Source: Burkholderiales bacterium
GTDB lineage: Bacteria; Pseudomonadota; Gammaproteobacteria; Burkholderiales; CAIKXV01
Assembly: GCA_038205245.1 (NCBI GenBank)
Contig: JBBRCD010000006.1
Span: forward strand, 692 to 64,691
Direction of reading: 5' to 3'
Length of the DNA: 64,000 nt
Shown: piece after piece, positions 48,580 to 64,000 of the stretch
Position numbering within the stretch: the stretch's first letter is position 1
Layout of the letters: each line of letters starts with the position of its first letter
Translations under genes and position numbers: made by a program
The notes under the pieces: model-generated
Databases searched by the model: none
What the model saw: the letters and a program-made list of their open reading frames with translations, nothing else
Told to the model about the DNA's origin: nothing

Positions 48580-50808
48580 TCAGCGCGCGCCTGCGACCGG
48601 ACTGCTGATCTTCGCATCCAGCGCGGTCAGTACGATGTCACGGGTCAGCAACTCTGGCAGCAGCACCGGCTGTGTCCTACCGGGCAGGTAGACCACATAC
48701 ACCGGCACGCCGCTGCGGCCATAGCCGGCAAGGGCCTCGGTGATCGCGCGGTCACGGCGGGTCCAGTCTGCGCGCAGGGTCGCAACGTTGCCCGCCTTGA
48801 AGCGTGCGGCGACCGCAGCGGTTTCCAGCACCAGCTGCTTGTTGGCCTGGCAGGTGACGCACCAGGCGGCAGTGAAATCGATGAACACCGGCCGACCCTC
48901 GGCGCGCAGCTGCGCGACCCGCTCGCTGGACCAGGGCTGCCAGTCGACCAGTCCTGCGGCGGGACGCACCGAACCGGCGCTCGGCTCGGCGCCCGGCGCT
49001 GGCCAGGCGGCGTACAGGCCGGCCAGTGCGACCGCGAGCGTCGCTGTGGCCGCCACTGCGCGCCCGGGCTGGGTAGAACCCGGGTGCGCAAAGCGGCCGT
49101 AGATCCATGCGGCCAAGGCAACCAGTACCAGCCCGGCAAGCAGGCCGAGCACTGCATCGTTGCCCGCCTGCATGCCGAGCACCCAGACCAGCCAGGCGAC
49201 GGTACCGAGCAGCGGAAACACCATGGCCTGCCGGAAGGTGACCATCCATGGCCCGGGCCGCGGCAGCAGGCGCGCGGCACGCGGCATGAACGACAGCAGC
49301 ACATAGGGCGACGCCATGCCGATGGCCAGCGCCCCGAACACCGCGAAAGCCATCGCCGCCGACTGGGCGAGCGCGTATCCGAGCGCTGCCCCCATGAAGG
49401 GCGCAGTGCAGGGTGCGGCGACCGCGACCGCCAGCACGCCAGTCAGGAACGCCCCGGTGTTGCCGCCACGCTCGGGGACGTTGCCGGCGGCCGACGCGAC
49501 CCGCAATCCGGTTTCGAATACCCCGGCGAGGTTGAGCGCGAGCAGGGTGAACAGGACCGCCATCGCCGCGACGAACGGCGGGGACTGCAACTGGAAGCCC
49601 CAGCCGATCTGCTCGCCCCCGGCTCGAAGCGCGATCAGCACACCGGCCAGCGCCCAGAACGACAGCAATACGCCGGCACCGAAGGCGAGGCCGTGCACGC
49701 GCAGGGCGGCGGGATCGCGCGTCGCCTGCTCGACCATCGCCAGCGCCTTGATCGACAGCACCGGGAACACGCAGGGCATCAGGTTGAGGATCAGGCCGCC
49801 GACCAGCGCAAGCAGCAGGGCCAGCGCAAGCCCGATCGGGGCCGGCGTGGCGGGCTGCGCAGAGATCGACGACGCGCCGGTCGACGTGTCTCCGGTTGTG
49901 CCGTCCAATCGTGGCCCGAGCGCGGCGATCTCGGGCACCAGCGCAGCCTCGATCATCGCCGCCGCCGGCTGGTTCGCGCCCAGACCGGCCGAGGCCACCA
50001 GCAGGCCCGAAACGCGTTCGATCGGGGTGGTCGGCTGGACTTGCAGCGGCACCTGCACCAGCAATCCGTCCCGGTGCCGGACGGTGGATTGGGGTTTCGA
50101 GTGCGCGACCTGGCCTTCAAAGCCATTGAAGAAATAGATCTCGCCTGCCGGCACGACCGTTCCGGGCGGCGCCTTGAGCGAGATCAGAAGCTGCTGGCCG
50201 GCGACAGTCGCCGAGGCGGTCCAGCCAGTCAGCGTCCCGGGCAGTGCGCTGCGCGCCTGGGCGAACAGCGCCTGCCAGCGCGGGTCGGGCGCGGCGGCGA
50301 CCGGGGCCACCGGTAACTGGAAGCCGACCATCGCCGACTCCGGGATGCACACATCCTTGCACACCAGCCACTCGGCCAGTGCACTGACTCTGAGCATCGA
50401 TTCGGCGAATCCGGCCGGAACATCGATGCGTACCGGCAGCACCACCTCGCGTTCATAGCCGTAGTTCATCAGCGGCCCGACCGGGAGGCGTTTTGGTACC
50501 GGCCACTGCAGCGCGCCCGCGCTCACCCCGGCCGGCAGTTGCCACTGCAACTGGGTGGCGAGGCCGGAGTCTCCCGGGTTCAGCCAGTAGGTATGCCATT
50601 GCGGCGCGATACGCATTCGCAGCGCTGCCCAGAACGGCTCACCCGGGCGCACCGTGGTCACCTCGGGGACAAGATCGACCTGCACCTGGCGTGAAGCCGG
50701 GCCGCCGAACGGTGCCTGCGCCGCCGACCAGTCAGCGCCGAACGAGCACAGGCCGGTGGCAAAAACGACCACCAGCCAACGCCAACCTGACCGGGAACAA
50801 TGGGACAT
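48580..50808 (-). CDS. dsbD: Thiol:disulfide interchange protein, DsbD/ScsB-like transmembrane reductase
   Basis: Signal peptide, a large N-terminal periplasmic domain and a central multi-TM core with Cys residues (NLMPCVFPVLS...AAPCTAPFMG). C-terminal thioredoxin domain FIDFTAAWCVTCQ. Start at the ATG at complement 50806-50808 (GTG alternative at 50835). Confidence 0.9.
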   Translation of the reverse strand: MSHCSRSGWRWLVVVFATGLCSFGADWSAAQAPFGGPASRQVQVDLVPEVTTVRPGEPFWAALRMRIAPQWHTYWLNPGDSGLATQLQWQLPAGVSAGALQWPVPKRLPVGPLMNYGYEREVVLPVRIDVPAGFAESMLRVSALAEWLVCKDVCIPESAMVGFQLPVAPVAAAPDPRWQALFAQARSALPGTLTGWTASATVAGQQLLISLKAPPGTVVPAGEIYFFNGFEGQVAHSKPQSTVRHRDGLLVQVPLQVQPTTPIERVSGLLVASAGLGANQPAAAMIEAALVPEIAALGPRLDGTTGDTSTGASSISAQPATPAPIGLALALLLALVGGLILNLMPCVFPVLSIKALAMVEQATRDPAALRVHGLAFGAGVLLSFWALAGVLIALRAGGEQIGWGFQLQSPPFVAAMAVLFTLLALNLAGVFETGLRVASAAGNVPERGGNTGAFLTGVLAVAVAAPCTAPFMGAALGYALAQSAAMAFAVFGALAIGMASPYVLLSFMPRAARLLPRPGPWMVTFRQAMVFPLLGTVAWLVWVLGMQAGNDAVLGLLAGLVLVALAAWIYGRFAHPGSTQPGRAVAATATLAVALAGLYAAWPAPGAEPSAGSVRPAAGLVDWQPWSSERVAQLRAEGRPVFIDFTAAWCVTCQANKQLVLETAAVAARFKAGNVATLRADWTRRDRAITEALAGYGRSGVPVYVVYLPGRTQPVLLPELLTRDIVLTALDAKISSPVAGAR

Positions 50809-50884
50809 GAACGCGGGAATCACCTGTATCGGCACACCCTGTTATCGGCCGGATCCGATCGGGATTCACCTCCGGCTGGAGAAA

Positions 50885-52507
50885 TCAGTTCAGCAGGAAG
50901 GCCGAGGGCACATTTTCTACCACCAATCGGCGATAGGACATCTGGGCGTCCGCGATGTCGAGCGAGATGAGGTTGCGCGCATCGGTGACGATACTGCCAC
51001 GACGCAAGGTATCGGAATCGAGCTTGTTCGGCTGGTCGAGCATCGACCGCAGCGTGCTGGCATGGCGCGCAGGCACATCTCGCACCGGCACCGCGGTCGG
51101 CGGGGTGAGGTGGGCGGCGCTGGCAACGACGAAGCTGTTGAGGTGACGCGAGCCCGCCGCATCCGGCCGGTACACCACGATCTCGGGCAACTCCGAGTGC
51201 AGCGTGACCAGGAAATGGGCGTACACCGTTGGCCGGTCCAGGTCGACGAACGTGTTGAACACGGCCACCCCATCCGGCTTCAGGCAGCCGCGCAGGTCGT
51301 GAAAGAAATCGCGGGTGATCAGATACTCGGGGATGCCATCCCCATGGAACAGGTCGATCACGATCAGATCGTAAGTCGACCGGCAGGCGCGCAGATAAGT
51401 GCGGGCATCGGCCTCGATACCGCGCACCTTTCTGGGGTCGAAACCGAAGTGCTTCTCGGCGACCTGGAACGAGACCGGGTCGATCTCCACAGCCGTCACC
51501 TCGGTGCCGCGCCGGGCGAGGGTCATCGGCACCACGCCCGCACCCAGCCCGAGCACCAGGGCGCGATGGGCTTGCGGACGATAGGCCTGGGTCAGCGCCT
51601 CCAGCCCGTAGGTGAAAAACGACAGCGAGCGGTTGTCCGCGTCGAGCGTGTTCTGCACCAGCCCGTCCTGGAAATAGATGCGCATCTGGTCGGCAGGCTT
51701 GGCGCCTGCGGGTGCGGCGATGATCTTCACCGTGCCGAACAGCGAGCCGTACTCCGCCTGTTTCTCCCACACCATTCCGCCATAGCTGGCCGGCCACAGG
51801 CGGTCGAGGTAGCGGTCCGAGCCGATCAGCAGCCCGGCCGAGGCGATCGTGGCGACGACGCTGATGGCGATCAGACGGCTGCGGTCGGCCACCGGAACCG
51901 GTGGCCGGAGCGCGCCGATCAGCGACAGCACCGACAGCACAACCGCCACCGACAGCACCGCGTTGTAGTTCGACACATGGGGCATCAGCACGAACGCGGT
52001 GACGATCACCCCGGCCACCGAGCCGACGGTACTGATGAAGAACACCCGGCCAGAACCGGCGTCCAGTTGCTCCAGGGCTTTGTCCTGACCCGCGCGCGCA
52101 CGGGTCATGATTGCCACCAGCAGCGGATTCATCGCCGAGGTGGTCAGCAGGGGCAGGAACAGCAGGATGATGCAGGCGATAAAGGCGCCGACAACCAGAT
52201 CGAGGTTGGCCAACGCGTGGAAGGCATACGGGTAGACCAGACAGGCGGCGACAATGGCCAGGGCGGCCCAGGCCGGTTGGGCCAGATACCACTGGGCGAG
52301 GCGCTCGATCGATGGGGCTCGCCTGGAATGGGTGAGCAGTCCACCTGCCCAGTAGCCGACCGCGAGCGCGATCAGGGTGATCGACAGAATGCCGGTCCAG
52401 ATATAAATGCTGACGCCGAAGTAGGGCGTCATGATGCGTGACGCGAGCAGCTCGAGAGCCAGAATGGCGGCGCCGGTGGTGAAGATGATCGCGTTGAGGA
52501 GAAACAT
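50885..52507 (-). CDS. Membrane-fused spermidine-synthase-like protein (multi-TM N-terminus plus class I aminopropyl/methyl-transferase fold)
   Basis: N-terminus MFLLNAIIFTTGAAILALELLASRIMTPYFGVSIYIWT plus further TM segments. C-terminal LVLGLGAGVVPMTLARRGTEVTAVEIDP...IVIDLFHGDGIPEYL. Confidence 0.8.
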   Translation of the reverse strand: MFLLNAIIFTTGAAILALELLASRIMTPYFGVSIYIWTGILSITLIALAVGYWAGGLLTHSRRAPSIERLAQWYLAQPAWAALAIVAACLVYPYAFHALANLDLVVGAFIACIILLFLPLLTTSAMNPLLVAIMTRARAGQDKALEQLDAGSGRVFFISTVGSVAGVIVTAFVLMPHVSNYNAVLSVAVVLSVLSLIGALRPPVPVADRSRLIAISVVATIASAGLLIGSDRYLDRLWPASYGGMVWEKQAEYGSLFGTVKIIAAPAGAKPADQMRIYFQDGLVQNTLDADNRSLSFFTYGLEALTQAYRPQAHRALVLGLGAGVVPMTLARRGTEVTAVEIDPVSFQVAEKHFGFDPRKVRGIEADARTYLRACRSTYDLIVIDLFHGDGIPEYLITRDFFHDLRGCLKPDGVAVFNTFVDLDRPTVYAHFLVTLHSELPEIVVYRPDAAGSRHLNSFVVASAAHLTPPTAVPVRDVPARHASTLRSMLDQPNKLDSDTLRRGSIVTDARNLISLDIADAQMSYRRLVVENVPSAFLLN

Positions 52508-52866
52508 GGTCAGGCTGGACTGGGTTATCGGGATTTGTTACTGCGCGCGCTGGCGCCGCGGTGCCGTTTGAGCCGGGACGGGCACAGCGCCGGCGGGCGG
52601 CCGGCGAGGGGCAGAAGGCAAGGGGTCAGCGGCAAGGAACGAAGGGGTCGCGGATTGTAAGGCCATGTCCGGCCCGCCGATAGGACAAAGTGGTGTTTGC
52701 TAGACTTCGGCTGCCGCTTTGTGGCGCCGCCGTGATTCACCCTCGTTTTGCGCGGTGCGGGGGTATAAACGAAGGTCTGTAAACGAGTACGACCGGTGTG
52801 CGCACGAGCGGTACACGCGCGACCGGCACGAGAACGACTGGCAAGCCTAAGACTGGAAGGTCCCGG

Positions 52867-53838
52867 ATGAACCTGATGAATGAAGCGGCAGGGCGCCGCC
52901 CCCTGGCAGCACTTATGGCGCTGCTGCTCCCCCTGCTCTGGGTGTCCCTGCCCATGCTGCCCGGACCACACCAGCCGCAGGCCCGGGCTCAGCCGGGCAC
53001 GGCGGCGACCGCGGTCGGTCCGAACGACACCGGGGTGGTCGATGAGGATACCGACACGCCCTATGTGCCGACGCCGCCTGAAGTGGTGGAGCGGATGCTG
53101 TCGCTCGCTGGGCTGGGTCCGAAGGACTACCTGATCGATCTCGGGTCGGGGGATGGCCGTATCGTGCTCGCGGCAGTCTCCAAGTTCGGCGCCCGCGGCC
53201 ATGGCATCGAGATCGACCCGCGGTTGATCAAGCGCAGCCAGGATGCGGCCCGCAAGCTGGGCATCAGCGACCGGGCGCAGTTCCTGACCCAGGATCTGTT
53301 CGAGTCCGATTTCTCGAAGGCGACGGTGATCAGCGTCTACCTGTTGCCCAAGGTGATGCAGTTGCTGACGCCGAAGTTTGCCGGTCTGCGGCCGGGCACC
53401 CGAATCGTCTCGCACGACTATGCGCTCCTCGCCGACTGGCGGCCTGACTTCTCGGTGCGCATGTTCGTGCCCAACAAGCCGGTCGGGCGCGACAAGCACA
53501 GCACGCTGATGTTGTGGACCGTACCGGCGCCGGTGGCAGGCACCTGGCGCTTCGATCTGCCCAAGGCCCAGGGCGGCGGACAGGTCGAGATCGCGATTGC
53601 CCAGACCTATCAGGTACTCAAGGGCAAGGCGACGATCGACGGCCAGCCGGTCGACGTGATGGGTCTGCGCATCGAAGGCGAACGGATGCGCTTCGCGCTC
53701 GAGCCGGTCGGCAATGGCGAGCGCCTTCGCCACGAGTTCGATGGACAGGTCAGTGGCGACCGGGTCTCCGGGGGCGTGGTGTTCGACGGTCAGCCACCGA
53801 CATCACCCGCGAAGTGGGATGCGCGCCGCGGCGGTTAG
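52867..53838 (+). CDS. Exported class I SAM-methyltransferase-like protein, paralog 1 of 7
   Basis: The ATG at 52867 follows GGAAGG. MNLMNEAAGRRPLAALMALLLPLLWVSL...ARAQ signal. YVPTPPEVVERML...LIDLGSGDGRIVLAA...GIEID...QDLFESD...VISVYLLP...LRPGTRIVSHDY. WTVPAPVAGTW hinge and C-terminal domain. Confidence 0.85.
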   Translation: MNLMNEAAGRRPLAALMALLLPLLWVSLPMLPGPHQPQARAQPGTAATAVGPNDTGVVDEDTDTPYVPTPPEVVERMLSLAGLGPKDYLIDLGSGDGRIVLAAVSKFGARGHGIEIDPRLIKRSQDAARKLGISDRAQFLTQDLFESDFSKATVISVYLLPKVMQLLTPKFAGLRPGTRIVSHDYALLADWRPDFSVRMFVPNKPVGRDKHSTLMLWTVPAPVAGTWRFDLPKAQGGGQVEIAIAQTYQVLKGKATIDGQPVDVMGLRIEGERMRFALEPVGNGERLRHEFDGQVSGDRVSGGVVFDGQPPTSPAKWDARRGG

Positions 53839-54056
53839 CATGACCTGGAAAAGCGCAGCGAGGCGGGCCGCCTGCCGTCGGCGTGGCGCATAGCGCTTTT
53901 CGCCGTCAGGACAATGGTGCAGACTGGGCGCGTGTCGGCCTGGCGGCCAGGGGACAGACCCCGCATGGGGTATGTCCCGGCTTCTGTCACCTCTTCCACA
54001 CGGCTGATCGAGTGGGCGCGATGCGCAACGACGAAAAACAACGACAACAGGGAGAC

Positions 54057-54713
54057 ATGATGAAATCACGTACAACCGCGTTGCTGGCTTCTATCGCAAT
54101 CCTGGCCGGCTGTATTGGCGCCGACAGTTCACCGACATCGCTCGGCTTCTTTGTCACCAGCGCCGGCTCGGGCCGGGGCGCCGACCTGGGCGGCCTTGCT
54201 GGCGCCGATGCGCTTTGCCAGCGGCTGGGCGCGTCGGCCGGGTCGGGTCACCGCACCTGGCGGGCCTATCTCAGCACGCAGCCGACCGCCGGCGCACCGG
54301 CAGTGAATGCGCGTGACCGGATCGGCCGCGGCCCGTGGGCGAACGCCAAGGGCGTGATCGTTGCCGAGAACGTGGCGCAGCTTCATGGCGACAACAACCT
54401 GAACCAGAAGACCGCGCTGACCGAAACCGGCGCGATGGTCAACGGGCGCACCGAGAAGCCCAACATGCACGACATCCTCACTGGCTCGCAGGCGGACGGC
54501 ACCGCGTTCCCGGCTGGCGATGATCGTACGTGCAGCAACTGGACCAGCAGTACCGGGGGCTCGGCGATGGTCGGCCACCATGATCGTATCGGGCTGACCG
54601 ATACCCCCGCGGCGCGCTCATGGAACACGTCGCATCCGTCCAAGGCCTGCAGCCAGGAGGCGCTGATCAGCACCGGCGGTAACGGCTTCCTCTACTGCTT
54701 CGCGGCACGCTGA
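54057..54713 (+). CDS. Lipoprotein with an endostatin-like (C-type-lectin-fold) domain
   Basis: ATG after GGGAG. Lipobox ILAGC. GADLGGLAGADALCQ...WRAYLST...ILTGSQADG...RTCSNWTS...KACS...FLYCFAA parallels endostatin RGIRGADFQCFQ...FRAFLSS...WHGSDPSG...YCETWRT...SC...IVLCIE as I remember it. Four Cys follow the lipobox. Confidence 0.65.
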   Translation: MMKSRTTALLASIAILAGCIGADSSPTSLGFFVTSAGSGRGADLGGLAGADALCQRLGASAGSGHRTWRAYLSTQPTAGAPAVNARDRIGRGPWANAKGVIVAENVAQLHGDNNLNQKTALTETGAMVNGRTEKPNMHDILTGSQADGTAFPAGDDRTCSNWTSSTGGSAMVGHHDRIGLTDTPAARSWNTSHPSKACSQEALISTGGNGFLYCFAAR

Positions 54714-54827
54714 ACCAGGGGCGCGGGTTGCGGATGGCCCAGACGCAGCCGGCTCCGTCGGTAACCGACGCGCCCGGACACCGCCGTCATCGCGGTGCGC
54801 CGGTCAGCACGGCGCTGGCATTCGCAC

Positions 54828-55619
54828 TCAGTGGATGTTGTAGCCGCCGTCGATGCGGATGTCTTCCCCCTGCAGGAAGGTCGCCGCGGTAGTCGCCAGA
54901 TAGAGGGCGAGATCGGCAATCTCCCAGGGTTCGCCAAAGCGGCCGGCCGGCACATACTGCTCCAGTCGGCGCTTCGCGCCTTCCGGGTCGGCCTCGTTGC
55001 GTGCCAGGATCGGCCCGGTGGCAATCGGGCCGGGGCTGATCGAGTTGACGATGATCCCCTCTCGACCGAGTTCCAGAGCGATCGACTTGGTCAGGTGAAT
55101 CAGCGCCGCCTTGGTCAAGCCGTACACCGCCCGCCGCTCGTAGGTGACGCTGCCAAGCTGGCTGGCGATGAAGATGATCCGGCCCCCGCCCTGGCGCCGC
55201 ATGATCGGCACCACCGCCTGGCTGGCGAAAAACGGCGAGGTCAGGTTGACCGCGACCACCTTGTCATACACGTCGCGCGGGTAGTCCCCGAACTTCAGCG
55301 GGGCGCGGATACCGGCATTGTTGACCAGCACGTCGATGCGCCCGAAGCGGCGGTCGGCCTCGGCGATCATCGCCTCGGCGGCGTCCGGTGCGGCCAGGTC
55401 GAACACCCCATGCTCGATGCGCCCTGCCAGGGGAAACGCCTGGCATGCCTTGACTGCGGTTTCCAGCTGCGCCACCGTCGCCTCGGCGACCAGGAACACC
55501 GAGGCTCCGGCCTCGGCAAACTTCATGGCGATCGCGTTACCGATGCCCTGAGGGGTGGACGCCCCGGTCACCACCGCTACCTTGCCCTGCAGATCTGTCA
55601 CGCCTGCCGCTCCCCCCAT
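54828..55619 (-). CDS. Short-chain dehydrogenase/reductase (FabG-like)
   Basis: KVAVVTGASTPQGIGNAIA cofactor motif, NNAG, and the catalytic Y-x-x-x-K in YGLTKAAL. Confidence 0.88.
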   Translation of the reverse strand: MGGAAGVTDLQGKVAVVTGASTPQGIGNAIAMKFAEAGASVFLVAEATVAQLETAVKACQAFPLAGRIEHGVFDLAAPDAAEAMIAEADRRFGRIDVLVNNAGIRAPLKFGDYPRDVYDKVVAVNLTSPFFASQAVVPIMRRQGGGRIIFIASQLGSVTYERRAVYGLTKAALIHLTKSIALELGREGIIVNSISPGPIATGPILARNEADPEGAKRRLEQYVPAGRFGEPWEIADLALYLATTAATFLQGEDIRIDGGYNIH

Positions 55620-55637
55620 GCCGGTACGTGGTCGCGT

Positions 55638-55697
55638 CTAAAACACCTGACGCTACAACGCCTGACTCTACAACACCTGTCTCTACACCACCCGACC
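55638..55697. repeat. 15-bp tandem repeat x4 between the SDR and racemase genes
   Basis: CTAAAACACCTGACG CTACAACGCCTGACT CTACAACACCTGTCT CTACACCACCCGACC. The last unit overlaps the racemase stop and final codons. Confidence 0.85.
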
Positions 55698-56339
55698 CAG
55701 CGCCAGCGCCACCGCGGCCTGAGTCGGATCGATCACGGTCACCCCGAGGCTGTCTTCCAGCTTCGCGCGGTACGGCGAGAAGCCGGCACAGCCGAGCACG
55801 ATCGCCTGTGCGCCCAGCTCGTCGCGCAGACGCTGACCCACCGACTCGAGGCGGGCCCAGGTGCGCTCGCGATCGGCGAGCTCGGTGACGCCCAGACCGA
55901 CCGCAAGGCCGCCGCAGTAGCGGTGCTCGAAGCCGAGCGCCCGGATCTTGCGCCGGTGGCGCAGCAGCGAGCCATCGACGATCGCGATCGAGGCGAAGCG
56001 CTCGGCGATCGCGGACGCGGTGTTGAAGCCGGATTCGCCGATGCCGAGCACCGGCTGCCGGTAGATCTCGCGCAGGGCAAACAGTCCGGGGTCGGAGAAG
56101 CAGCCGATGATGATCGCCTCGCTCGCCTCGAGGTCGGGGCGGCGGGCCAGCCAGGCCAGCATCAGCCCGGTGCTGGCGTCGACCTGGGCCTGGGTCTCCA
56201 CCCCGGGCGGGCCCTCATGCAGGGTCTCGCACCGGATCTGCGGGCCACCGGGCAGACGCATCGACTCGACCGCCTCGCTCATCTGGTCGGTGACCGACTG
56301 GGTGCTGTTCGGGTTGATGACCAGGATACGTTTTGGCAT
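55683..56339 (-). CDS. Asp/Glu/hydantoin racemase family protein
   Basis: MPKRILVINPNSTQSVTDQM...IIGCFSDPGL...IVLGCAGFS, with two conserved Cys-containing motifs. Confidence 0.82.
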   Translation of the reverse strand: MPKRILVINPNSTQSVTDQMSEAVESMRLPGGPQIRCETLHEGPPGVETQAQVDASTGLMLAWLARRPDLEASEAIIIGCFSDPGLFALREIYRQPVLGIGESGFNTASAIAERFASIAIVDGSLLRHRRKIRALGFEHRYCGGLAVGLGVTELADRERTWARLESVGQRLRDELGAQAIVLGCAGFSPYRAKLEDSLGVTVIDPTQAAVALALGRVV

Positions 56340-56441
56340 GGCGGCGTACAGGGGCGAGCCTGTGTCATTGAGTCGATCCGGCAGAGCGTAACTCGAATCG
56401 ACCGGCCATGCGCATGCGGCCTGGCCTGGCGGGCGCAGCGG

Positions 56442-57719
56442 TCAGCTGCCCAGCAACGCCAGCATGGCGAGGACCGCCGCCGCCATCATGACGGTGGCGG
56501 TCCATCCGAGAACTCGCTGCCCGCGGGGCGCGACGAAGGGTCCGAGCTGTTGCCTGCTGGAGGCAACGATCATCGTCGCAGCCATCAGGGGTACGGCGAT
56601 CACGCCGTTGAGCACGGCGCTCCAGAACAGCGCCTTGATCGGGTCGATCGGCAGGAACAGCATGCCGAGTCCGAGCGCGAACCCCAGCGCGATCACACCG
56701 TAGAATGCCTTCGCGTTGTCCGGTTTCTGTTCCAGTCCGATCCGCCACCCGCGCAGTTCGCCGACGGCATAGGCGGCCGATCCAGCGAGCACCGGAAGGG
56801 CGATCAGGCCGGTGCCGATGATGCCCAGGCTGAACAGGACGAAGGCGAACTCGCCGGCGATCGGCCTCAAGGCTTCCGCTGCCTGTGCCGAGGTCTCGAT
56901 GTCGGTGATGCCGGCCTTGTGCAATGTCATCGCGGTGGTGAGCATGATGAAGAAGGCGATCAGGTTCGAGAACGCCATGCCGACATGGTTGTCCAGGGCG
57001 ATGCGTCCCAGCTCTGCCGGCGCGTCTGCCGGATGTTGGAGCAGTGGCCCCTTGCCGCTGCCAAGTGCGGCGTCCTCGACTTCCTCGGCGCTCTGCCAGA
57101 AAAACAGATACGGGCTGATCGTCGTACCGAACACCGCTACGATGACAGTCAGTGCGCTGGCCGACCAGGCGAACTGCGGCAGCAGCACGCCGCGGGCGAC
57201 CTCGGCCCAGTCGATGCTCACCGAGAACAGCACGCCGACATAGGCGAACAGGGCCAGGGTGAGCCATTTGAGCAGATGTACATACCGGTGATATGGCACG
57301 AACACCTGCAGCACAAGCGACCCCGCGGCAAACACGACCGCGAACAGGACGTCGCCCCAGCCGACCACCAGCCGCGCGGCGGCGCCCATCGCGGCGAGGT
57401 TGGCCCCGATGTTTACCGTGTTCGCCGCGAACAGCAGAAGCACCAGGAGGTTGACCAGCCAGCGGGGCAGCACCTGCGCCATGTTGGCAGCCAGACCCTG
57501 GCCGGTGACCCGCCCGATGCGCGCACAGATCGACTGTATCGCGGTCATCAGCGGGTAGGTCAGTACCACCGTCCAGAGCAGATTGACGCCGAACTGCGCA
57601 CCGGCCTGTGAATAGGTGGCGATGCCGCTCGGGTCGTCGTCCGCCGCTCCGGTGATCAGACCCGGGCCGAGTCGCCTGAACCAGGGAGGCGAGCTTGTCT
57701 CGCCTGACGGCTGGGTCAT
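56442..57719 (-). CDS. NRAMP-family divalent metal cation transporter
   Basis: From the ATG at complement 57717-57719: MTQPSGETSSPPWFRRLGPGLITGAADDDPSGIATYSQAGAQFG, then about 11 TM segments. Confidence 0.88.
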   Translation of the reverse strand: MTQPSGETSSPPWFRRLGPGLITGAADDDPSGIATYSQAGAQFGVNLLWTVVLTYPLMTAIQSICARIGRVTGQGLAANMAQVLPRWLVNLLVLLLFAANTVNIGANLAAMGAAARLVVGWGDVLFAVVFAAGSLVLQVFVPYHRYVHLLKWLTLALFAYVGVLFSVSIDWAEVARGVLLPQFAWSASALTVIVAVFGTTISPYLFFWQSAEEVEDAALGSGKGPLLQHPADAPAELGRIALDNHVGMAFSNLIAFFIMLTTAMTLHKAGITDIETSAQAAEALRPIAGEFAFVLFSLGIIGTGLIALPVLAGSAAYAVGELRGWRIGLEQKPDNAKAFYGVIALGFALGLGMLFLPIDPIKALFWSAVLNGVIAVPLMAATMIVASSRQQLGPFVAPRGQRVLGWTATVMMAAAVLAMLALLGS

Positions 57720-57810
57720 GTCTATGGCGTCCTTTGGACTAACAGTCATGCCGAGTGGCGGCACCCCCGAGGATGAAGGAAATCTGTGTTCCGGAGGGCT
57801 GTGCTCAGCC

Positions 57811-57913
57811 GGGGCCAGGCTCCTTTTCCCAGTGGTCAGGCGGGGCCAGGCTCCTTTTCCCACGCACGCATGCGCCAAGGCGCTTTCCCGCGCGGGAAAA
57901 GGAACCTGGCCCC
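57811..57913. repeat. Two direct copies and one inverted copy of a 20-bp element, plus a nested palindrome
   Basis: GGGGCCAGGCTCCTTTTCCC at 57811-57830 and 57842-57861. Inverted copy GGGAAAAGGAACCTGGCCCC at 57894-57913 (1 mismatch). Palindrome TTTCCCGCGCGGGAAA at 57884-57899 overlaps the inverted copy. Confidence 0.9.
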
Positions 57914-57930
57914 TCGCTCACGCGCAGGCG

Positions 57931-57980
57931 CCATGCCGCCTTCGATCCAGATTCTCCATGCCGCCTTCGTTCCAGATTCT
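57931..57980. repeat. 25-bp tandem duplication
   Basis: CCATGCCGCCTTCGATCCAGATTCT followed by CCATGCCGCCTTCGTTCCAGATTCT. Confidence 0.9.
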
Positions 57981-58234
57981 TCCACGTTAAGGCGGGGACG
58001 GACCCAATGCGGGATCTGTCCCCTGCGTCGGGTGAGTCAAGACTCGACCGCGGGCCCGACCTGCAGCGCCCGACGCTCGACTTCAGGCTAGAGGTCGCCC
58101 GCGTGGCAGTCAATCTTTATCGGCAGTCGACCCTTGTCCGTGCGCGCTGGCAGTTCGTTCGGCGCTGCGTTTGGCGCCCAAGGCGCGCGTGATAAACTTT
58201 CGCTCTTGATGAGCGCCGCTTTCCTACTCCTTCC

Positions 58235-59191
58235 TTGAGCTGGTTTACACCGCCGAACTCGCAGCGCCGTTCGTTGCTGACTGCGCTGCTTACTGCGCCG
58301 CCGGCAGCCGTGGTGTGCGCCATGGGCGGGCGGGCAACGGGCGCGCGCGCCCAGGAGCTCAAGCTCGACGTGCCGTTCGCGCCGACCAACTTCACGTTGA
58401 TCGACACCATGATGCGGGTCGCCAACGTGACTGCAGCCGACTATGTGATCGATCTGGGATCGGGCGACGGGCGCATCAACATCGCCGCGGCGCGCGACTG
58501 GGGCGCGCCTGGAATCGGCTACGAGATCGATCCGGCGCGGGTGCGCGATGCGATCGAACTGGCAAAGGTCGCCGGCGTCTCCGACCGGGTCAGCTTCACG
58601 GTGCAGAACCTGTTCGATTCGGACATTTCCAAGGCGACCGTGGTCGCCCTTTACCTGGGCGCCAAGGTCAATCTGCGGGTACGCCCCAAGCTGCTGGCTG
58701 AACTGCGCCCGGGCACCCGGGTGGTGTCGCATGACTTCGACCTTGGCGAGTGGAAGCCGGACCTGCATATCCGCCTGCGCGACTACGGCAGCAACGTCTA
58801 CTTCTGGTGGGTACCGGCACGGGTCGCCGGGACCTGGGCGCTGAAGCTCGACCGCCCGGGCGCGGCCGCACGCAGCCACGAGATCGTGTTCAAGCAGACC
58901 TTCCAGGATCTGGATGCGACAGTGCGCACCGAAGGCGCGCGTGTCGGCCTGCGCGATATCCGCCTTGCCGGCAACGGACTCACCTTCATCATGATGGAAG
59001 AGGTGAACCGGCAGTTCGCCTTCTATCGTTTTTTCGGCCGTGTCGTGCGCAGCGGCTCGGGCGAAGCCATCGAAGGCTACTACCGCACCGAGAGCGAGGG
59101 CAGCCGCAGCGAGACGCCGTTTCGCATGCAGCGCACCGCGCTGGCCGAGCCTGGGCCTGCGGGTGCCTGGACCTACGTGCGAGGCAGCTGA
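58235..59191 (+). CDS. Exported class I SAM-methyltransferase-like protein, paralog 2
   Basis: SQRRSLLTALLTAPPAAVVCAMGGRATGARAQ is a Tat-like signal. VIDLGSGDGRINIAA...GYEID...QNLFDSD...VVALYL...LRPGTRVVSHDF, and a WWVPARVAGTW hinge. TTG start without a clear SD, so the start is uncertain. Confidence 0.8.
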   Translation: MSWFTPPNSQRRSLLTALLTAPPAAVVCAMGGRATGARAQELKLDVPFAPTNFTLIDTMMRVANVTAADYVIDLGSGDGRINIAAARDWGAPGIGYEIDPARVRDAIELAKVAGVSDRVSFTVQNLFDSDISKATVVALYLGAKVNLRVRPKLLAELRPGTRVVSHDFDLGEWKPDLHIRLRDYGSNVYFWWVPARVAGTWALKLDRPGAAARSHEIVFKQTFQDLDATVRTEGARVGLRDIRLAGNGLTFIMMEEVNRQFAFYRFFGRVVRSGSGEAIEGYYRTESEGSRSETPFRMQRTALAEPGPAGAWTYVRGS

Positions 59192-59193
59192 GC

Positions 59194-60135
59194 GTGAACC
59201 GCGCCCGCCGCCTCGCCCTTCGGATACTCACCCTGCCGGCGGGCGGCTCCGCGCTGTTGGCTGCTGACAGCGGTTCGCTGTGGGCGCAGGCGACCAAGCC
59301 ACTGGAGCGTACTGGCGGACCGTATGTGCCCACGCCCTGGCCGGTGGTCGACCAGATGATCCGCGCTGCCGCGATCGTCGCGTCCGACCTGGTGATGGAT
59401 CTGGGTTCCGGCGACGGCCGGCTGGTGATCGCTGCCGCCCAGCGCCATGGGTCGCGCGGCTTCGGTGTGGATATCGATCCTGAACTGGTGCGGCTGGCCA
59501 ACCAGAATGCCGAGAAGGAAGGCGTGGGCAAGCGGGTGCGGTTCGAACAGCGCGATATCTTCGACACCGATGTGCGCGAGGCGACCGTGCTTACGCTTTA
59601 TTTGTTGCCGGGGATGATGCTGAAGCTGCGGCCCAGGCTGCTGGCCGACCTGCGACCCGGGACGCGCATCGTTGCCCACGATTACCACTTCGGCGAATGG
59701 CGTGCGGACAGCCAGCTCACCTTCGACGTTCCCGAGAAGCTGGCGATCACCGGTGTACCCAATGCGACCGTCTACCACTGGACGGTGCCGGCGCGCATGG
59801 CGGGCCGCTGGCGGGTCAGCGCGCCGGCTGCATCCGGCCTGGATGGCGCATCGCTCGATCTGCGCCAGACGTTTCAGGATTTCGACGGCTCGGTCACTGT
59901 CTCCGGCCAGTCTGCACAGCGCGTCGATGCCACATCGCTGCGCGGGGGCCAGTTCCGTTTCGCCTCGGTCGTCGAGGGGCGCGGCGGCAAGCCGGGCCGC
60001 GCAGTGTTTCGCGGCCAGGTCGACGGTGCAAGGATGGACGGCACGATCGAACTTCCGGCAGGCAGCCCGGTGAAGTTCGGCGCCACGTACCTGGGCGCAG
60101 CCGCTGCCCCGGCCAGCGCAGCGGTTTCGAAGTGA
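59194..60135 (+). CDS. Exported class I SAM-methyltransferase-like protein, paralog 3
   Basis: GTG 2 nt after the paralog 2 stop. NRARRLALRILTLPAGGSALLAADSGSLWAQA. YVPTPWPVVDQMI...VMDLGSGDGRLVIAA...GVDID...RDIFDTD...LTLYLLP...LRPGTRIVAHDY. WTVPARMAGRW. Confidence 0.85.
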   Translation: MNRARRLALRILTLPAGGSALLAADSGSLWAQATKPLERTGGPYVPTPWPVVDQMIRAAAIVASDLVMDLGSGDGRLVIAAAQRHGSRGFGVDIDPELVRLANQNAEKEGVGKRVRFEQRDIFDTDVREATVLTLYLLPGMMLKLRPRLLADLRPGTRIVAHDYHFGEWRADSQLTFDVPEKLAITGVPNATVYHWTVPARMAGRWRVSAPAASGLDGASLDLRQTFQDFDGSVTVSGQSAQRVDATSLRGGQFRFASVVEGRGGKPGRAVFRGQVDGARMDGTIELPAGSPVKFGATYLGAAAAPASAAVSK

Positions 60136-60206
60136 ACGCAGTCTGGCAGCTGGTCGACGGCCGCAAGACGGACAAGTCATGAGGGACATGTGATGAGAGA
60201 CAGGGC

Positions 60207-61154
60207 ATGAATACTCGCGTGCCGCAGCCGTTGCCGCTTTCCGGCCGTGCCCGCAGAGCGGTGTTGATGCGCACGCTCGGTGGGGCGTGCGCCCTGGCGC
60301 TGCCCGGGGTTGCCCGCGCCCAGCAAGGCGTCGGCGATGTGGTCTATGTGCCGACCCCGCAGGTGGTGGTGAACCGGATGATGACGATGGCCCGGGTCGG
60401 CCCGGCCGACTATGTGATCGACCTCGGTTCAGGCGATGGCCGGCAATTGATCACCGCGGTCGCCAGGTTCGGCGCCAAGGGCGGCCAAGGGTTCGATCTG
60501 GACGAGGAACTGCTGCGCCAGGCCACCGCCAATGCAAAGATGAAAGGCGTGTCGGACCGGGTAATCTTCATCCGGCGCAACATGTTCGAGACCGACATCA
60601 GCGCAGCGAGCGTCATCACGCTCTACCTGCTGCCTTCGCTCAACCTCAAGCTGCGGCCGAAGCTGCTGGCCGAACTGCGGCCCGGGTCGCGCATCGTTTC
60701 CCACGACTACAGCATGGGTGACTGGCAGGCTGAGGAGTCGGTGACCATGCAGGTGCCCGAGAAACAGGTCGGCACCCCGGGGGTCAGCTATGTCTATCTG
60801 TGGATCGTGCCGGCCAACGTGTCCGGCAACTGGCAGTGGAAACTGCCCAGTGGCCAGACCGTCGAAGCCAGCGTCCAGCAGACGTTCCAGAATCTCGATG
60901 TGCGCGGCACGGTGGTCGGTGGCAAGCCGATCAATGTCACCTTGACCACGCTTCGTGCCGAGGATGTGCGGATCAGCGCAGTGATCGACATCGGCGGTCG
61001 CACGCTTCGTCATGATTTCGTCGGCCGGGTGCGGGGCGATGCGATCGAGGGCACGGTGCGCCTGTTCGACAAGGTCGAGAGCTCCAGTTCCTGGGCGGCG
61101 GTGCGCACTGGCGGGCGTGCGGCCTCGATCGAACCGGTGGCGGTGACGCGTTGA
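60207..61154 (+). CDS. Exported class I SAM-methyltransferase-like protein, paralog 4
   Basis: GRARRAVLMRTLGGACALALPGVARAQ. YVPTPQVVVNRMM...VIDLGSGDGRQLITA...GFDLD...RNMFETD...ITLYLLP...LRPGSRIVSHDY. WIVPANVSGNW. Confidence 0.87.
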   Translation: MNTRVPQPLPLSGRARRAVLMRTLGGACALALPGVARAQQGVGDVVYVPTPQVVVNRMMTMARVGPADYVIDLGSGDGRQLITAVARFGAKGGQGFDLDEELLRQATANAKMKGVSDRVIFIRRNMFETDISAASVITLYLLPSLNLKLRPKLLAELRPGSRIVSHDYSMGDWQAEESVTMQVPEKQVGTPGVSYVYLWIVPANVSGNWQWKLPSGQTVEASVQQTFQNLDVRGTVVGGKPINVTLTTLRAEDVRISAVIDIGGRTLRHDFVGRVRGDAIEGTVRLFDKVESSSSWAAVRTGGRAASIEPVAVTR

Positions 61155-62074
61155 GCGCTGATCGCAGGCGGCGTCGGCTCGCGGCTGCACTGATCGCGGC
61201 ACCTGCGCTGGCGGTCGCTGGCGCGCGCCCGCTGCGGGCTCAGGACGACAGGCCGTTCTCGCCCTTTGTCACCACGCCTCAGGTGACGGTGCTGCGCATG
61301 CTGTCGATCGCCCAGGTCGGCGCTCAGGACCATGTAATCGATCTGGGCTCGGGCGACGGGCGTATTCCGATCGTGGCGGCGAGCAAGTTCGGCGCCAGCG
61401 GCGGTGGGGTCGACCTGGATGCCATGCTGGTCGAGCTGTCCAATCGAAACGCACGCGAAGCCGGCGTGGCCGACCGGGTGCGCTTCGAGCGTGGCGATGT
61501 GTTCGTGGCCGATGTGCGCAAGGCGACCGTGGTCACCCTGTACCTGCTGCCACCGATCGTGCAGGGGCTGCGCGCCGGTCTGCTGCGCCAGCTGCGGCCC
61601 GGCAGCCGGATCGTCAGTCATGACTTTCCGTTCGAAGGCTGGCAGGCCGACGCGACCGAGACATTCTTCGCGCCCGAGAAGAACAATGGTCGGGGTGGTG
61701 ACAGCACGATCTTCCTCTACATCGTGCCGGCCGCAGTCCATGGCCGCTGGCAGCTGGGCTGGGTTGGCAGCGCGCCCGAGATGGCAGGTATCGGCCAGAT
61801 CGAGCTGCGGCTGCTGCAGACCAACCAGTTTGTCGAGATCGACCTGGCGCTCTCTGGGCAGCAGGCGGGCAGCCAGGTGCTGCAGGCGCGAGACGGCCGG
61901 GTGAGCGGCGATCGCTTGCGCTTCACCGCTGCGCTGCCTGAGCGCGCCGGCGGGCCGCCGGCCAGGCCCTGGCAGTTCGACGCCCGGGTCGACGGCGACA
62001 CCCTGTCCGGGGTGGCGCGCAACGACCGCGGCAGCGAACTGCGCTGGCAGGCGCGCCGCACAGCAGTGCGCTGA
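61151..62074 (+). CDS. Exported class I SAM-methyltransferase-like protein, paralog 5
   Basis: The TTG overlaps the paralog 4 stop (TTGA). SADRRRRRLAAALIAAPALAVAGARPLRAQ. FVTTPQVTVLRML...VIDLGSGDGRIPIVA...GVDLD...GDVFVAD...VTLYLLP...LRPGSRIVSHDF. YIVPAAVHGRW. Confidence 0.85.
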   Translation: MSADRRRRRLAAALIAAPALAVAGARPLRAQDDRPFSPFVTTPQVTVLRMLSIAQVGAQDHVIDLGSGDGRIPIVAASKFGASGGGVDLDAMLVELSNRNAREAGVADRVRFERGDVFVADVRKATVVTLYLLPPIVQGLRAGLLRQLRPGSRIVSHDFPFEGWQADATETFFAPEKNNGRGGDSTIFLYIVPAAVHGRWQLGWVGSAPEMAGIGQIELRLLQTNQFVEIDLALSGQQAGSQVLQARDGRVSGDRLRFTAALPERAGGPPARPWQFDARVDGDTLSGVARNDRGSELRWQARRTAVR

Positions 62075-62177
62075 CAGTTCGTTGAGTCAGATCGGGCCTG
62101 ACTTTCTGCGCGGATACAGGCAAACTGCGCACCGCAAAACGCCCCCAGAACCCAGACCGACAGGAACCTTGACCTAA

Positions 62178-63128
62178 ATGGGAGATGTGAAAAGCTTGTG
62201 CCGCGTTGCCCGCTGCGCTGCGCGGGTCCGCCCGCTCTGGATTCTCTGGCTGTTGGCCGCCCTGACCTTGGGCGCACCGGCCTCGGCACAGGAGCGCTTT
62301 TCGCTCTACGTGCCCAGTCCGCAGAGCGTTGCCGAGGCGATGGCCAAGATCGCCAACGTCGGCAAGAATGATGTGGTGGTCGATCTGGGTTCGGGGGACG
62401 GCCGGATAGTCACCACCGCCGCGCGGCTATATGGCGCGCGGGGCTTCGGCGTCGACATCAATCCGGAGCTGGTCGAACTGGCCAACGCGCTGGCGAAGAA
62501 GTCCGGGGTTGGCGACCGGGTGAGCTTTCGTCACCAGAACGTGTTCGACGCCGATCTGAAGGGCGTGACCGTGGTCAACCTGTATCTGTTTCCGGAACTG
62601 ATGCGCATGCTGCGGCCGAAGTTCCTGAACGAATTGCAACCGGGCGCCCGGATCGTCAGCCATGACTTCAACATGGGCACCTGGGAGCCGGACGAGCAGA
62701 TCACCTTCTTCGCGCCGGACAAGTTCGGTGGCGCTGGCGCGGATGCGCGGATTTTGATGTGGATCGTGCCGGCCAGGATCGACGGTTTCTGGAACTGGTC
62801 GCTGCCGGTGGCTGGCCAGACGATGAACTATGCCGCGCTCCTGGAGCAGCGCTTCCAGGTGGGCGAAGGCATCGTACGCGTGGGCAACCGGCGCGCCACG
62901 TTTTCCGAACTGCGATTGCGCGGCGACCAACTCTCGTTCGGGCTGCGTATGACGCTTGATCCGGGTGTGACCGTGATGCACGAGTTCCGCGGCACGGTGA
63001 AGGGCGACCAGATCGAGGGTGGCGTGCGGGTCACGCCCGAGGGCGGCAAGCCGGTCGATCTGCCATGGCGAGCGGCGCGCAGTGGCAGTACCAGCTACTT
63101 CCAGCCCACCGGGGTCGCGAGCAAGTGA
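62178..63128 (+). CDS. Exported class I SAM-methyltransferase-like protein, paralog 6
   Basis: RVRPLWILWLLAALTLGAPASAQ. YVPSPQSVAEAMA...VVDLGSGDGRIVTTA...GVDIN...QNVFDAD...VNLYLFP...LQPGARIVSHDF. WIVPARIDGFW. Confidence 0.87.
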   Translation: MGDVKSLCRVARCAARVRPLWILWLLAALTLGAPASAQERFSLYVPSPQSVAEAMAKIANVGKNDVVVDLGSGDGRIVTTAARLYGARGFGVDINPELVELANALAKKSGVGDRVSFRHQNVFDADLKGVTVVNLYLFPELMRMLRPKFLNELQPGARIVSHDFNMGTWEPDEQITFFAPDKFGGAGADARILMWIVPARIDGFWNWSLPVAGQTMNYAALLEQRFQVGEGIVRVGNRRATFSELRLRGDQLSFGLRMTLDPGVTVMHEFRGTVKGDQIEGGVRVTPEGGKPVDLPWRAARSGSTSYFQPTGVASK

Positions 63129-63197
63129 CCCGGGGACGGCGCGCGCGCTCGATGCCGGCGCGCCGGTTGCCGGGACAATGGATGCCGGGGGCGGACA

Positions 63198-63257
63198 GTC
63201 GGACATTCAGACATAGATTCAGACATGGCTTCAATCAGAGCTTCAGTCAGAGATTCG
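63198..63257. repeat. 12-bp tandem repeat x5 between paralogs 6 and 7
   Basis: GTCGGACATTCA GACATAGATTCA GACATGGCTTCA ATCAGAGCTTCA GTCAGAGATTCG. Confidence 0.85.
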
Positions 63258-63309
63258 AAGGTCACAAGGCGGCAATTCAGATGCAGGCAGATCCGTGGAG
63301 GAATCAAGG

Positions 63310-64000
63310 ATGAGTTCGTGGCGCAACAGGCTGGGCCTGCTGATGGTGGCGGGGCTGTTTTCGGGCGTCGTGTCCGCGCAGGAGCAATGGTCGTTCCCTG
63401 CCGGCAGCAGCCCGTTGATCGTGGACCGCATGGTCAAGTTCGCGCAGTTGCGCGACAAGGACGTGGTGGTCGATCTGGGTTCCTTTGACGGGCGCATCGT
63501 GCTCGCCGCAGTGCGCAGCAATCCGAACGTGCGCGGCTGGGGCGTGGATATCGATGCCGGCTGGGTGGCCAAGGCCAATGATGAGGCGAAACGGCTGGCT
63601 GTCGCCGACCGGGCGCAGTTCACCCACCGCAACGCGTTCGATGTCGACCTGCGTGAAGTCACGGTGATCAACATGTGGCTGTTTCGCAGCCTGACCCAGC
63701 TGCTCAGGCCGAAGATTCTCGCCGAGGCGCGGCCGGGCACTCGGGTGATCGTCAATGGTGCGCTGATCGACAACGCGAACATGCTCGGCAACTGGCAGCC
63801 GGATATCGTCGACCGCGGCGCCGGCAACGAGAGCCCGATCTTCATGTGGATCGTGCCGGCGCGGGTCGAAGGCGCCTGGACCTGGGAGCTGCCGTTCAAC
63901 GGCACGTCGCGCTCCTACGATCTGCTGTTGAGCCAGCAGTTCCAGATGATCGAGGGGCATGCCCGGGTCGCCAATCGCCGCGAGTCATTGAGCGACGCGC
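63310..64000 (+). CDS. Exported methyltransferase-like protein, paralog 7 (partial; motif I altered to GSFDG)
   Basis: ATG after GGAGGA. MSSWRNRLGLLMVAGLFSGVVSAQ signal. VVDLGSFDGRIVLAA...GVDID...RNAFDVD...INMWLF...ARPGTRVIV. WIVPARVEGAW...QQFQMIEG. Runs off the window end, so it is absent from the ORF track. Confidence 0.8.
   Translation, partial: MSSWRNRLGLLMVAGLFSGVVSAQEQWSFPAGSSPLIVDRMVKFAQLRDKDVVVDLGSFDGRIVLAAVRSNPNVRGWGVDIDAGWVAKANDEAKRLAVADRAQFTHRNAFDVDLREVTVINMWLFRSLTQLLRPKILAEARPGTRVIVNGALIDNANMLGNWQPDIVDRGAGNESPIFMWIVPARVEGAWTWELPFNGTSRSYDLLLSQQFQMIEGHARVANRRESLSDA

Follow-up and report, generated by a model that had tools for sequence, protein, structure and literature searches.

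Predicted export signals on an array of aKMT/FAM173-type methyltransferases in a Burkholderiales bacterium

Introduction

In bacteria, methylation dependent on S-adenosylmethionine (SAM) is regarded as taking place in the cytoplasm, and for the periplasm no source of SAM, of ATP or of NAD(P)H is known. Here, we describe seven paralogous genes, p1 to p7, that lie on the forward strand of contig JBBRCD010000006.1 from a Burkholderiales bacterium (assembly GCA_038205245.1) and encode proteins in which a predicted export signal precedes the core of a class I SAM-dependent methyltransferase. They extend from position 52867 to the end of the analyzed stretch of 64,000 nucleotides (contig positions 692 to 64,691), which is termed the window throughout. 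An initial annotation of this DNA had called a periplasmic SAM-dependent enzyme paradoxical, and we judge the paradox to be genuine.

Among described systems, the closest solved structure is 5BXY from Salinibacter ruber, a protein labeled 'RNA methyltransferase' with S-adenosylhomocysteine (SAH) bound (~46% identity, template modeling (TM) scores of 0.91-0.92). This bacterial protein belongs to the core family of the window proteins. In the PDB, its chain of 158 residues begins at the motif YVPTP and has neither signal nor barrel. A publication on the function of 5BXY was not found in our literature search, and the RNA label appears nominal. The crenarchaeal protein-lysine methyltransferase aKMT from Sulfolobus islandicus (5FA8, 5FAD, 5JWJ) displays the same compact seven-beta-strand fold as the window proteins (TM scores of 0.88-0.91, ~40% identity) and shares with them the motifs YVPTP, DLG(S/C)GDGR, an acidic residue after strand beta-2, N-x-F, (Y/F)LL and VSH(D/E)(F/Y). 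However, aKMT is cytoplasmic, comprises 161 residues and likewise begins at YVPTP without any extension, whereas the window proteins carry a signal peptide of 23-41 residues and a short variable linker ahead of YVPTP and a barrel of 100 residues behind the core. Unlike aKMT, the genes of the window family form arrays of 5-11 paralogs, and lysine specificity is only putative for their products.

The mitochondrial lysine methyltransferases FAM173A/ANT-KMT and FAM173B/ATPSc-KMT have been linked to aKMT and resemble the window proteins in that an aKMT-related core follows an N-terminal hydrophobic segment; alphaproteobacterial homologs have been noted and signals are not mentioned (PMC9006661; PMC5828452). 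The FAM173 enzymes likewise operate in a compartment that relies on imported SAM. Their segment is described as a retained transmembrane domain, whereas the x-A↓Q site (the arrow marks the predicted point of cleavage) and the lipobox variants of the window family point to cleavage or lipidation, and they lack the C-terminal barrel. Mitochondria possess a known SAM/SAH carrier. For the bacterial periplasm, we know of no described carrier of this kind. A functional analogy is offered by polysaccharide methyltransferases of the plant Golgi lumen, non-cytosolic SAM enzymes that depend on dedicated MFS-type SAM transporters (GoSAMT; 10.1101/2021.07.06.451061). The proteins of that system are unrelated and eukaryotic, and SAM transport by the bacterial candidates presented below is putative.

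The only name that databases offer for the proteins of the window family is 'class I SAM-dependent methyltransferase'. None of the literature we searched on aKMT/FAM173 in bacteria, periplasmic, secreted or Tat-dependent methyltransferases, membrane spermidine synthases and SAM export describes the family, and the phrases 'periplasmic methyltransferase' and 'extracellular methyltransferase' are absent from the ~8.3 million papers covered. In a 2025 preprint, mammalian METTL9 was called the first secreted methyltransferase. The methyltransferase from a Cld neighbourhood that is listed in a table of PMC9751292 comprises 228 residues and is not evidently related. Fold and family are known, but not the predicted extracytoplasmic location, the fusion to a barrel, the array organization or the genetic linkage to membrane proteins.

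Results

Export signals

All seven window proteins begin with a basic n-region, followed by an uncharged hydrophobic run of 14-28 residues (long in p1 with 28 and in p2 with 20 residues) and a small-x-Ala↓Gln site. Sec signals were recognized by a basic n-region, an h-region of 7-20 residues, small residues at positions -3 and -1 and a position near the N-terminus. The seven N-termini quoted in the initial annotation were recovered when the open reading frames (ORFs) were read, and its count of five copies with twin arginines (RR) directly before the h-region proved correct. The A-x-A-Q site it assigned to each protein is present in p1, p2, p4 and p6, but p3, p5 and p7 feature L/V-x-A-Q instead. 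A home-made signal-peptide scorer with free choice of the start codon flagged 15 of 34 background ORFs, missed p3 and p4 and was discarded as a statistic.

When the window and 15 related loci are taken together, the hydrophobic extension upstream of the core is open and in frame in all 108 copies and retains its n-h-c character despite sequence divergence. This goes beyond chance, given that the cytoplasmic homologs aKMT (5FA8) and 5BXY lack any such extension. A word-indexed search returned more than 4,338 relatives, and those listed start with a signal-like sequence. When 1.84 billion cluster representatives were searched with a profile, 2,738 clusters (50% identity) were found at E <= 1e-30. 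An N-terminal hydrophobic segment precedes the core in 140 of the 149 best representatives (50% identity), and most of the others are fragments. Several representatives contain canonical lipoboxes (LALAGC in P0193, LAAC in P0222 and P0243, LASC in P0162). A lipobox is sensible only on an exported protein and these lipoprotein-type variants thus argue for real export. Arginine and lysine are located before the h-region and glutamine, glutamate and aspartate after it, a distribution that places the C-terminal part outside according to the positive-inside rule. The export signals noted initially are borne out as sequence features, and they are conserved across a very large family. Judged from sequence features, it is very likely that the window proteins are exported from the cytoplasm.

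Methyltransferase core and SAM-binding motifs

Pfam assigns only generic methyltransferase domains, with Methyltransf_31 or Methyltransf_25 reaching the gathering score in p1 and p3-p6. The best NCBIfam match for all seven proteins is NF041081, the model for crenarchaeal aKMT. It covers only the core, and with 73-126 bits the scores stay under its equivalog cut-off of 200 bits, which identifies the window proteins as relatives and not as equivalogs by sequence. The nearest solved structures in sequence searches are 5BXY (E 5e-38) and aKMT (5FA8, 5FAD and 5JWJ, E ~1e-35), with E-values of around 1e-36 to 1e-38 for 5FA8 and 5BXY. An AlphaFold2 (AF2) model of p4 built with 79 homologs attained a predicted local distance difference test (pLDDT) score of 89.4, with residues 1-44 disordered and residues 45-305 above 90. 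It is made up of the methyltransferase core (residues 45-200) and an eight-stranded antiparallel sheet (residues 207-302). Foldseek aligned the modeled core with the SAM/SAH complexes 5FAD, 5FA8 and 5BXY at an E-value of 2e-19 and TM scores of 0.88-0.92. As modeled, the p4 core adopts the Rossmann-like fold of class I (seven-beta-strand) SAM-dependent methyltransferases, including the SAM pocket, and the kinship with FAM173/aKMT noted earlier is borne out by profile, sequence and structure searches alike.

Across 79 aligned sequences, conservation is complete or reaches at least 90% for DLGSGDGR, for the acidic residue after beta-2 and for N/D-x-F, YLLP and (S/T)HD. Motif I, the acidic residue after beta-2 and the aspartate or asparagine of motif III are present in p1-p6, and motif I is altered in p7. 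The earlier statement that all seven proteins keep all SAM-binding motifs therefore applies in full to p1 and p3-p6, which also retain the family motifs YVPTP, (Y/F)LL(P/T) and VSH(D/E)(F/Y). It applies in part to p2, where FAPTN replaces YVPTP and LYLGAK replaces LYLLP, and it fails for p7. There, motif I reads DLGSFDG with phenylalanine in place of the central glycine, WSFPAGSS, MWLFRS and IVNGA occur, and YVPTP, LYLLP and VSHD are lost. These changes are common to all p7 orthologs, and we regard p7 as a probable pseudoenzyme without catalytic activity. The paralog p9, which is found in related loci beyond the equivalent of the window end, is degenerate in much the same way (DLGSGNGQ; p7 and p9 orthologs in L003, L004, L006 and L007), and both are probably pseudoenzymes maintained inside the array. 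The degeneracy of p7 and p9, set against near-invariant motifs elsewhere, strengthens the case that the other copies stay under selection for catalysis.

Some relatives (P0023-P0036, P0048, P0121, P0122 and the protein encoded at L015 3337-4914) are proteins of 480-620 residues that combine a signal or lipobox with two to three tandem methyltransferase cores, in some cases fused to an N-terminal domain of the Planctomycete TIGR03000 type. The L015 locus has neither a spermidine-synthase-like nor a permease neighbor.

C-terminal barrel

Modeled alone, the C-terminal domain of ~100 residues adopts an eight-stranded up-and-down barrel (pLDDT 85). A Pfam family for it was not found even at E <= 10, and a sequence-profile search did not yield a relative in the PDB. 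The modeled barrel is avidin/calycin-like and probably holds or selects the substrate.

Array layout

The coordinates of the paralogs and of the membrane proteins treated below are compiled in Table 1. Codon bias is that of real genes (GC3, the G+C content at third codon positions, is 0.80-0.83), and the window paralogs are 35-43% identical to p4. The start of p2 is the least certain of the seven, since it is a TTG without a ribosome-binding site. Only 2 nt separate the p2 stop from the p3 start, and the stop codon of p4 overlaps the start of p5 (TTGA).

Related loci L001-L008 are eight close relatives obtained by scanning a genome collection with one protein, and the broader taxonomic picture stems from metagenome contigs and a plasmid collection. 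The order p1...p2-p11 is syntenic in eight loci of Burkholderiales/Betaproteobacteria metagenome-assembled genomes (MAGs). Loci that reach past p7 go on with four extra signal-bearing paralogs, p8-p11 (L003 13040-17687; L004 13022-17828), so the window truncates an 11-gene array. Orthologs are 65-84% and paralogs 35-45% identical within these arrays. The copies stem from old duplications, and every one has been maintained.

Table 1. Positions and characteristics of the methyltransferase paralogs in the window and of linked membrane proteins. Positions with an L prefix refer to related loci outside the window; ↓, predicted cleavage site.
Feature	Position	Strand	Characteristics
p1	52867..53838	+	ATG start; ribosome-binding site GGAAGG upstream; signal ~52867-52989 (ARA↓Q), linker of ~30 amino acids, aKMT-like core, C-terminal beta-barrel
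p2	58235..59191	+	TTG start; signal ~58235-58351 (SQRRSLL...ARA↓QE); methyltransferase core and barrel
p3	59194..60135	+	GTG start; signal ~59194-59286 (RARRLAL...LWA↓QA); methyltransferase core and barrel
p4	60207..61154	+	ATG start; signal ~60207-60320 (RARRAVL...ARA↓QQ); core residues 45-200, barrel residues 207-302
p5	61151..62074	+	TTG start; signal ~61151-61240 (RRRRRLAAAL...LRA↓QD); methyltransferase core and barrel
p6	62187..63128	+	GTG start; ribosome-binding site GGGAG; signal ~62187-62288 (no RR; ASA↓QE); core and barrel
p7	63310..64000 (cut by window end)	+	ATG start; signal ~63310-63378 (VSA↓QE); degenerate methyltransferase core (DLGSFDG, MWLFRS, IVNGA)
Fused MFS/spermidine synthase (540 residues)	50885..52507	-	directly upstream of p1; NF037959, 171.7 bits versus cut-off 40
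LAT/SLC7-type permease	L011 10882-12237; L017 2449-3861; L019 5838-7217; L020 3962-5341		adjoins signal-bearing methyltransferase gene

Linked membrane proteins

The protein encoded directly upstream of p1 on the opposite strand is composed of seven hydrophobic segments, predicted to span the membrane (7-TM), and a C-terminal, spermidine-synthase-like domain of the class I SAM fold, which matches polyamine aminopropyltransferase structures in the PDB weakly (E 2e-6). Averaged over 120 homologs, lysine plus arginine amount to 4.05, 2.84 and 3.18 in loops 2, 4 and 6 and to 1.0, 0.39 and 0.0 in loops 1, 3 and 5. Following the positive-inside rule, this bias predicts a cytoplasmic N-terminus and a periplasmic spermidine-synthase-like domain. 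The membrane protein adjoins a methyltransferase array in eight out of eight other contigs, six of which were reached via methyltransferase homologs and two via homologs of the membrane protein. All eight are laid out alike: a single methyltransferase gene is followed by the gene for the membrane protein in opposite orientation and then by four to six more signal-bearing methyltransferase genes. The wider neighborhood differs, with tctABC and htpG in the eight contigs versus nuo genes and dsbD in the window.

Just upstream of the membrane protein gene, a DsbD-type thiol:disulfide interchange protein (DsbD_N, transmembrane and thioredoxin-like domains) is encoded within 47833-50835 (-) beside a TlpA/ResA-like AhpC-TSA oxidoreductase. 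This envelope redox pair is present in L003, too. Some arrays (L011 1928-3532 and also L013, L014 and L016) include two additional lipoprotein genes. The product of the first is a Methyltransf_31 protein of 247 residues bearing an LSAGC lipobox, i.e., a second, unrelated SAM-fold protein predicted to be exported, and that of the other is a metal-dependent hydrolase of the metallo-beta-lactamase fold with an LVAGC lipobox.

In six of eight betaproteobacterial arrays, a gene for an amino-acid permease abuts or overlaps the last methyltransferase gene. The permease resembles LAT/SLC7/BasC carriers and also the YjeH methionine exporter family. Of 72,556 plasmids in a collection, five contain the methyltransferase and five a permease ortholog. 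Both genes lie side by side in Agrobacterium salinitolerans, where they overlap by 17 nt, in Chelatococcus sp. CO-6 and in Leptolyngbya boryana. Between the permeases of Agrobacterium and of the betaproteobacterial array in L011, identity amounts to 50%. In Agrobacterium, the methyltransferase combines a Sec signal with the barrel, while its counterpart from Leptolyngbya exhibits a lipoprotein-like signal (...LISTGC) and no barrel. A module of permease and methyltransferase thus spans alpha- and betaproteobacteria as well as cyanobacteria. LAT-type carriers are exchangers. By analogy, it is conceivable that this one swaps cytoplasmic SAM for periplasmic SAH. Such an antiport would have parallels in the SAM carrier of mitochondria, the SAM transporter of Chlamydia (PMC3104491) and the MFS-type SAM transporters of the plant Golgi (10.1101/2021.07.06.451061). 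Of the solutions considered initially, an unknown route by which SAM reaches the envelope gains support from the conserved neighboring genes for membrane proteins and transporters, with SAM as a putative cargo.

Discussion

Taking architecture, signals, motif conservation and gene linkage together, we consider it somewhat more likely than not that the window genes encode exported, mostly catalytic methyltransferases of the aKMT type that receive SAM from linked membrane proteins. The sequence data show the architecture, the signals across the family, the conserved SAM motifs and the gene linkage; export itself, catalysis outside the cytoplasm, the substrate and the SAM route are inferred. The seven ORFs, as part of a conserved 11-gene array, would encode exported class I methyltransferases of the aKMT/FAM173 type, each built from a cleavable signal peptide, a methyltransferase core of ~150 residues and a C-terminal eight-stranded barrel. 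The mature enzymes would reside in the periplasm or envelope, and p1 and p3-p6, perhaps also p2, would serve as SAM-dependent N-methyltransferases for amine-bearing envelope substrates, i.e., protein lysines or polyamine-like molecules, with p7 acting as a non-catalytic paralog. SAM would not be leaked by chance but supplied by dedicated membrane proteins that travel with the family, namely the 7-TM protein beside p1 and, in many other genomes, the LAT-type exchanger.

Several points weigh against this interpretation. The signal calls rest on inspection and positional conservation, and the seven transmembrane segments of the partner were counted in a hydropathy scan and not in a structure. Neither SAM in the bacterial periplasm nor a periplasmic SAM methyltransferase was found in the literature searched. 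Searches with tblastn did not detect the LAT-type permease in the window or in L001-L008, the most closely related loci, and instead of SAM this permease could carry the amine substrate or product. The linkage to the 7-TM partner may in part reflect shared ancestry, as all such arrays are Burkholderiales-like. Finally, the Foldseek matches of the barrel are weak (E of at least 0.035) and comprise avidins, fatty-acid-binding proteins (FABP) and the Cap15 barrel.

The latter proteins bind small ligands, and it has to be considered that the exported proteins are non-methylating binding or scaffold pseudoenzymes of the periplasm, in which SAM pocket and barrel accommodate an adenosyl compound or a hydrophobic small molecule. 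That non-catalytic members exist is evident from p7 and p9, which have lost the central glycine of motif I, YVPTP, LYLLP and SHD and are nevertheless conserved across genomes, and the lack of a known SAM source outside the cytoplasm also speaks for binders. Yet the motifs are near-invariant in p1 and p3-p6 and in the 79 homologs, a pattern expected of purifying selection on catalysis, and the contrast with p7 and p9 displays what relaxed selection looks like. We therefore regard this explanation as unlikely, albeit as the strongest competitor.

The initial annotation had also raised the possibility that the proteins travel folded via the twin-arginine translocation (Tat) pathway with the cofactor bound. 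The enzymes would then load SAM in the cytoplasm and act once or a few times as methyl carriers outside. The closest precedent is the glucose-fructose oxidoreductase of Zymomonas, which is exported with bound NADP. In possible resemblance to Tat-exported cofactor enzymes, p1, p2, p4 and p5 feature RR ahead of a mildly hydrophobic h-region and a basic residue in the c-region. In these copies, arginine occupies position -2 of the cleavage site, as opposed to serine in p6 and p7. RR is found before the h-region not only in the five window copies but in 50 of 68 copies from the lineage of the window, and all orthologs of p2-p5 retain it, as do most of those of p7, p10 and p11, although the signals have otherwise drifted. 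The orthologs of p2 keep RRRSLLAAL and those of p5 RRR; RRR followed by Gly/Ala-rich h-regions is typical of the p3 orthologs, and p4 orthologs combine long n-regions with Ala/Gly-rich h-regions. Orthologs of p1 have Sec-type signals without RR, and p6 itself has no RR, although four of its six orthologs do. The p9 orthologs bear a canonical Tat motif, and that of L003 (QSRRTFIAG), which lies beyond the position of the window end, passes the Tat model TIGR01409 with 17.1 bits versus a cut-off of 16.7. Among array copies, the fraction of strongly hydrophobic residues (LIVFMW) is lower in RR signals than in the others (0.36 versus 0.41, p = 0.008).

Against these features stands that the hidden Markov models for Tat signals, PF10518 and TIGR01409, did not match the N-termini of p1-p7 even at E <= 10, with a weak formate_TAT match of p2 (E 0.014) besides. 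The resemblance to Tat signals put forward initially thus finds backing in the orthologs of p2-p5 and in p9 and none in these models for the window copies. Mean Kyte-Doolittle hydropathy did not differ between RR and non-RR signals, neither among array copies (p = 0.25) nor among family representatives, and at 65% G+C arginine-rich n-regions are to be expected. Judged by their features, the signals of p1, p6 and p7 are Sec-like and those of p2-p5 possibly of the Tat type. In the homologous arrays of sister lineages and across most of the family, the signals are of the Sec or lipoprotein type, which is unable to carry a bound cofactor. SAM-loaded folded export can therefore not be the general solution of the family, although it may take place in the lineage of the window. 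Moreover, in contrast to established Tat cofactor enzymes, the cofactor would be a consumable co-substrate here, and a protein of ~300 residues would make a very costly stoichiometric methyl donor. All in all, Tat-mediated co-export of SAM appears improbable, to nearly the same degree as the binding proteins discussed above.

Even less probable is that the proteins cross first the inner membrane via Sec or Tat and then the outer membrane, e.g., via type II secretion, and act in or on other cells where SAM is available. Both kinds of signal also feed type II secretion, and our literature matches include bacterial methyltransferases that are secreted and act within host cells. However, secretion-system genes were not found in or near the arrays, the hosts are free-living freshwater Burkholderiales represented by MAGs, cyanobacteria and soil alphaproteobacteria, lipoprotein variants would remain anchored in the envelope, and the linkage to inner-membrane proteins points at an envelope function. 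Least of all do we believe that the hydrophobic N-terminus is an artefact of wrong start codons or an uncleaved anchor by which the domain would stay cytoplasmic, a possibility considered initially after the example of FAM173, since the TTG starts of p2 and p5, the missing ribosome-binding site of p2, GTG codons near YVPTP and the lack of a confident AF2 structure for residues 1-44 are outweighed by the in-frame extension of all 108 copies, the distribution of charges around the h-region, the conserved x-A↓Q site, the lipobox variants and upstream starts that fit the tight gene spacing.

The family is large, and its members keep an intact SAM pocket and yet carry Sec, Tat-like or lipoprotein signals. 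By gene linkage, it is tied to a transporter and to a spermidine-synthase-like protein predicted to face outward. Activity outside the cytoplasm would constitute an unrecognized class of envelope modification, for example lysine methylation of proteins in the outer membrane or periplasm or methylation of polyamines, and would call for a bacterial counterpart to the SAM/SAH carriers of organelles. Should the proteins turn out to be inactive binders, they would clearly exemplify how an entire lineage of enzymes can be re-used once its compartment has changed. The two-gene module of permease and methyltransferase is present in cultured strains of Agrobacterium, Chelatococcus and Leptolyngbya and renders the question directly testable. 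More speculatively, and with considerable doubt on our side, a LAT antiporter working in the SAM-out/SAH-in direction, maybe together with the 7-TM protein in Burkholderiales, might feed periplasmic aKMT-like amine methyltransferases in many bacteria. In concert with the outward-facing aminopropyltransferase-like domain, these could decorate envelope components with lysine or polyamine groups that are methylated and possibly also aminopropylated, a chemistry that would recall the modification of silaffins and long-chain polyamines in diatoms.

Further genes and sequence elements in the window

Four genes are situated between p1 and p2-p7 and encode a DUF1554 lipoprotein, an SDR protein, an Asp/Glu racemase and an NRAMP transporter. 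The first of these (54057-54713, +) specifies a small lipoprotein (MMKSRTTALLASIAILAGC...) whose match to DUF1554 is below threshold (24.1 versus 27.5 bits). A SAM or other riboswitch upstream of the array was not detected, as Rfam gave no match at gathering score in the window. Over positions 52400-58400, Rfam only highlighted a palindromic hairpin that spuriously matches miRNA-precursor models on both strands. Between the NRAMP gene and p2, the intergenic stretch 57801-57980 contains tandem direct repeats of 31 nt and 25 nt and an inverted repeat of 35 nt resembling a repetitive extragenic palindromic (REP) element, and it is the source of these miRNA-precursor matches. Farther upstream, three consecutive Proton_antipo_M genes (40251-45350, +) correspond to the nuoL, nuoM and nuoN region for NADH:quinone oxidoreductase and are followed by a gene for a PAS-GGDEF diguanylate cyclase (45923-47185, -).

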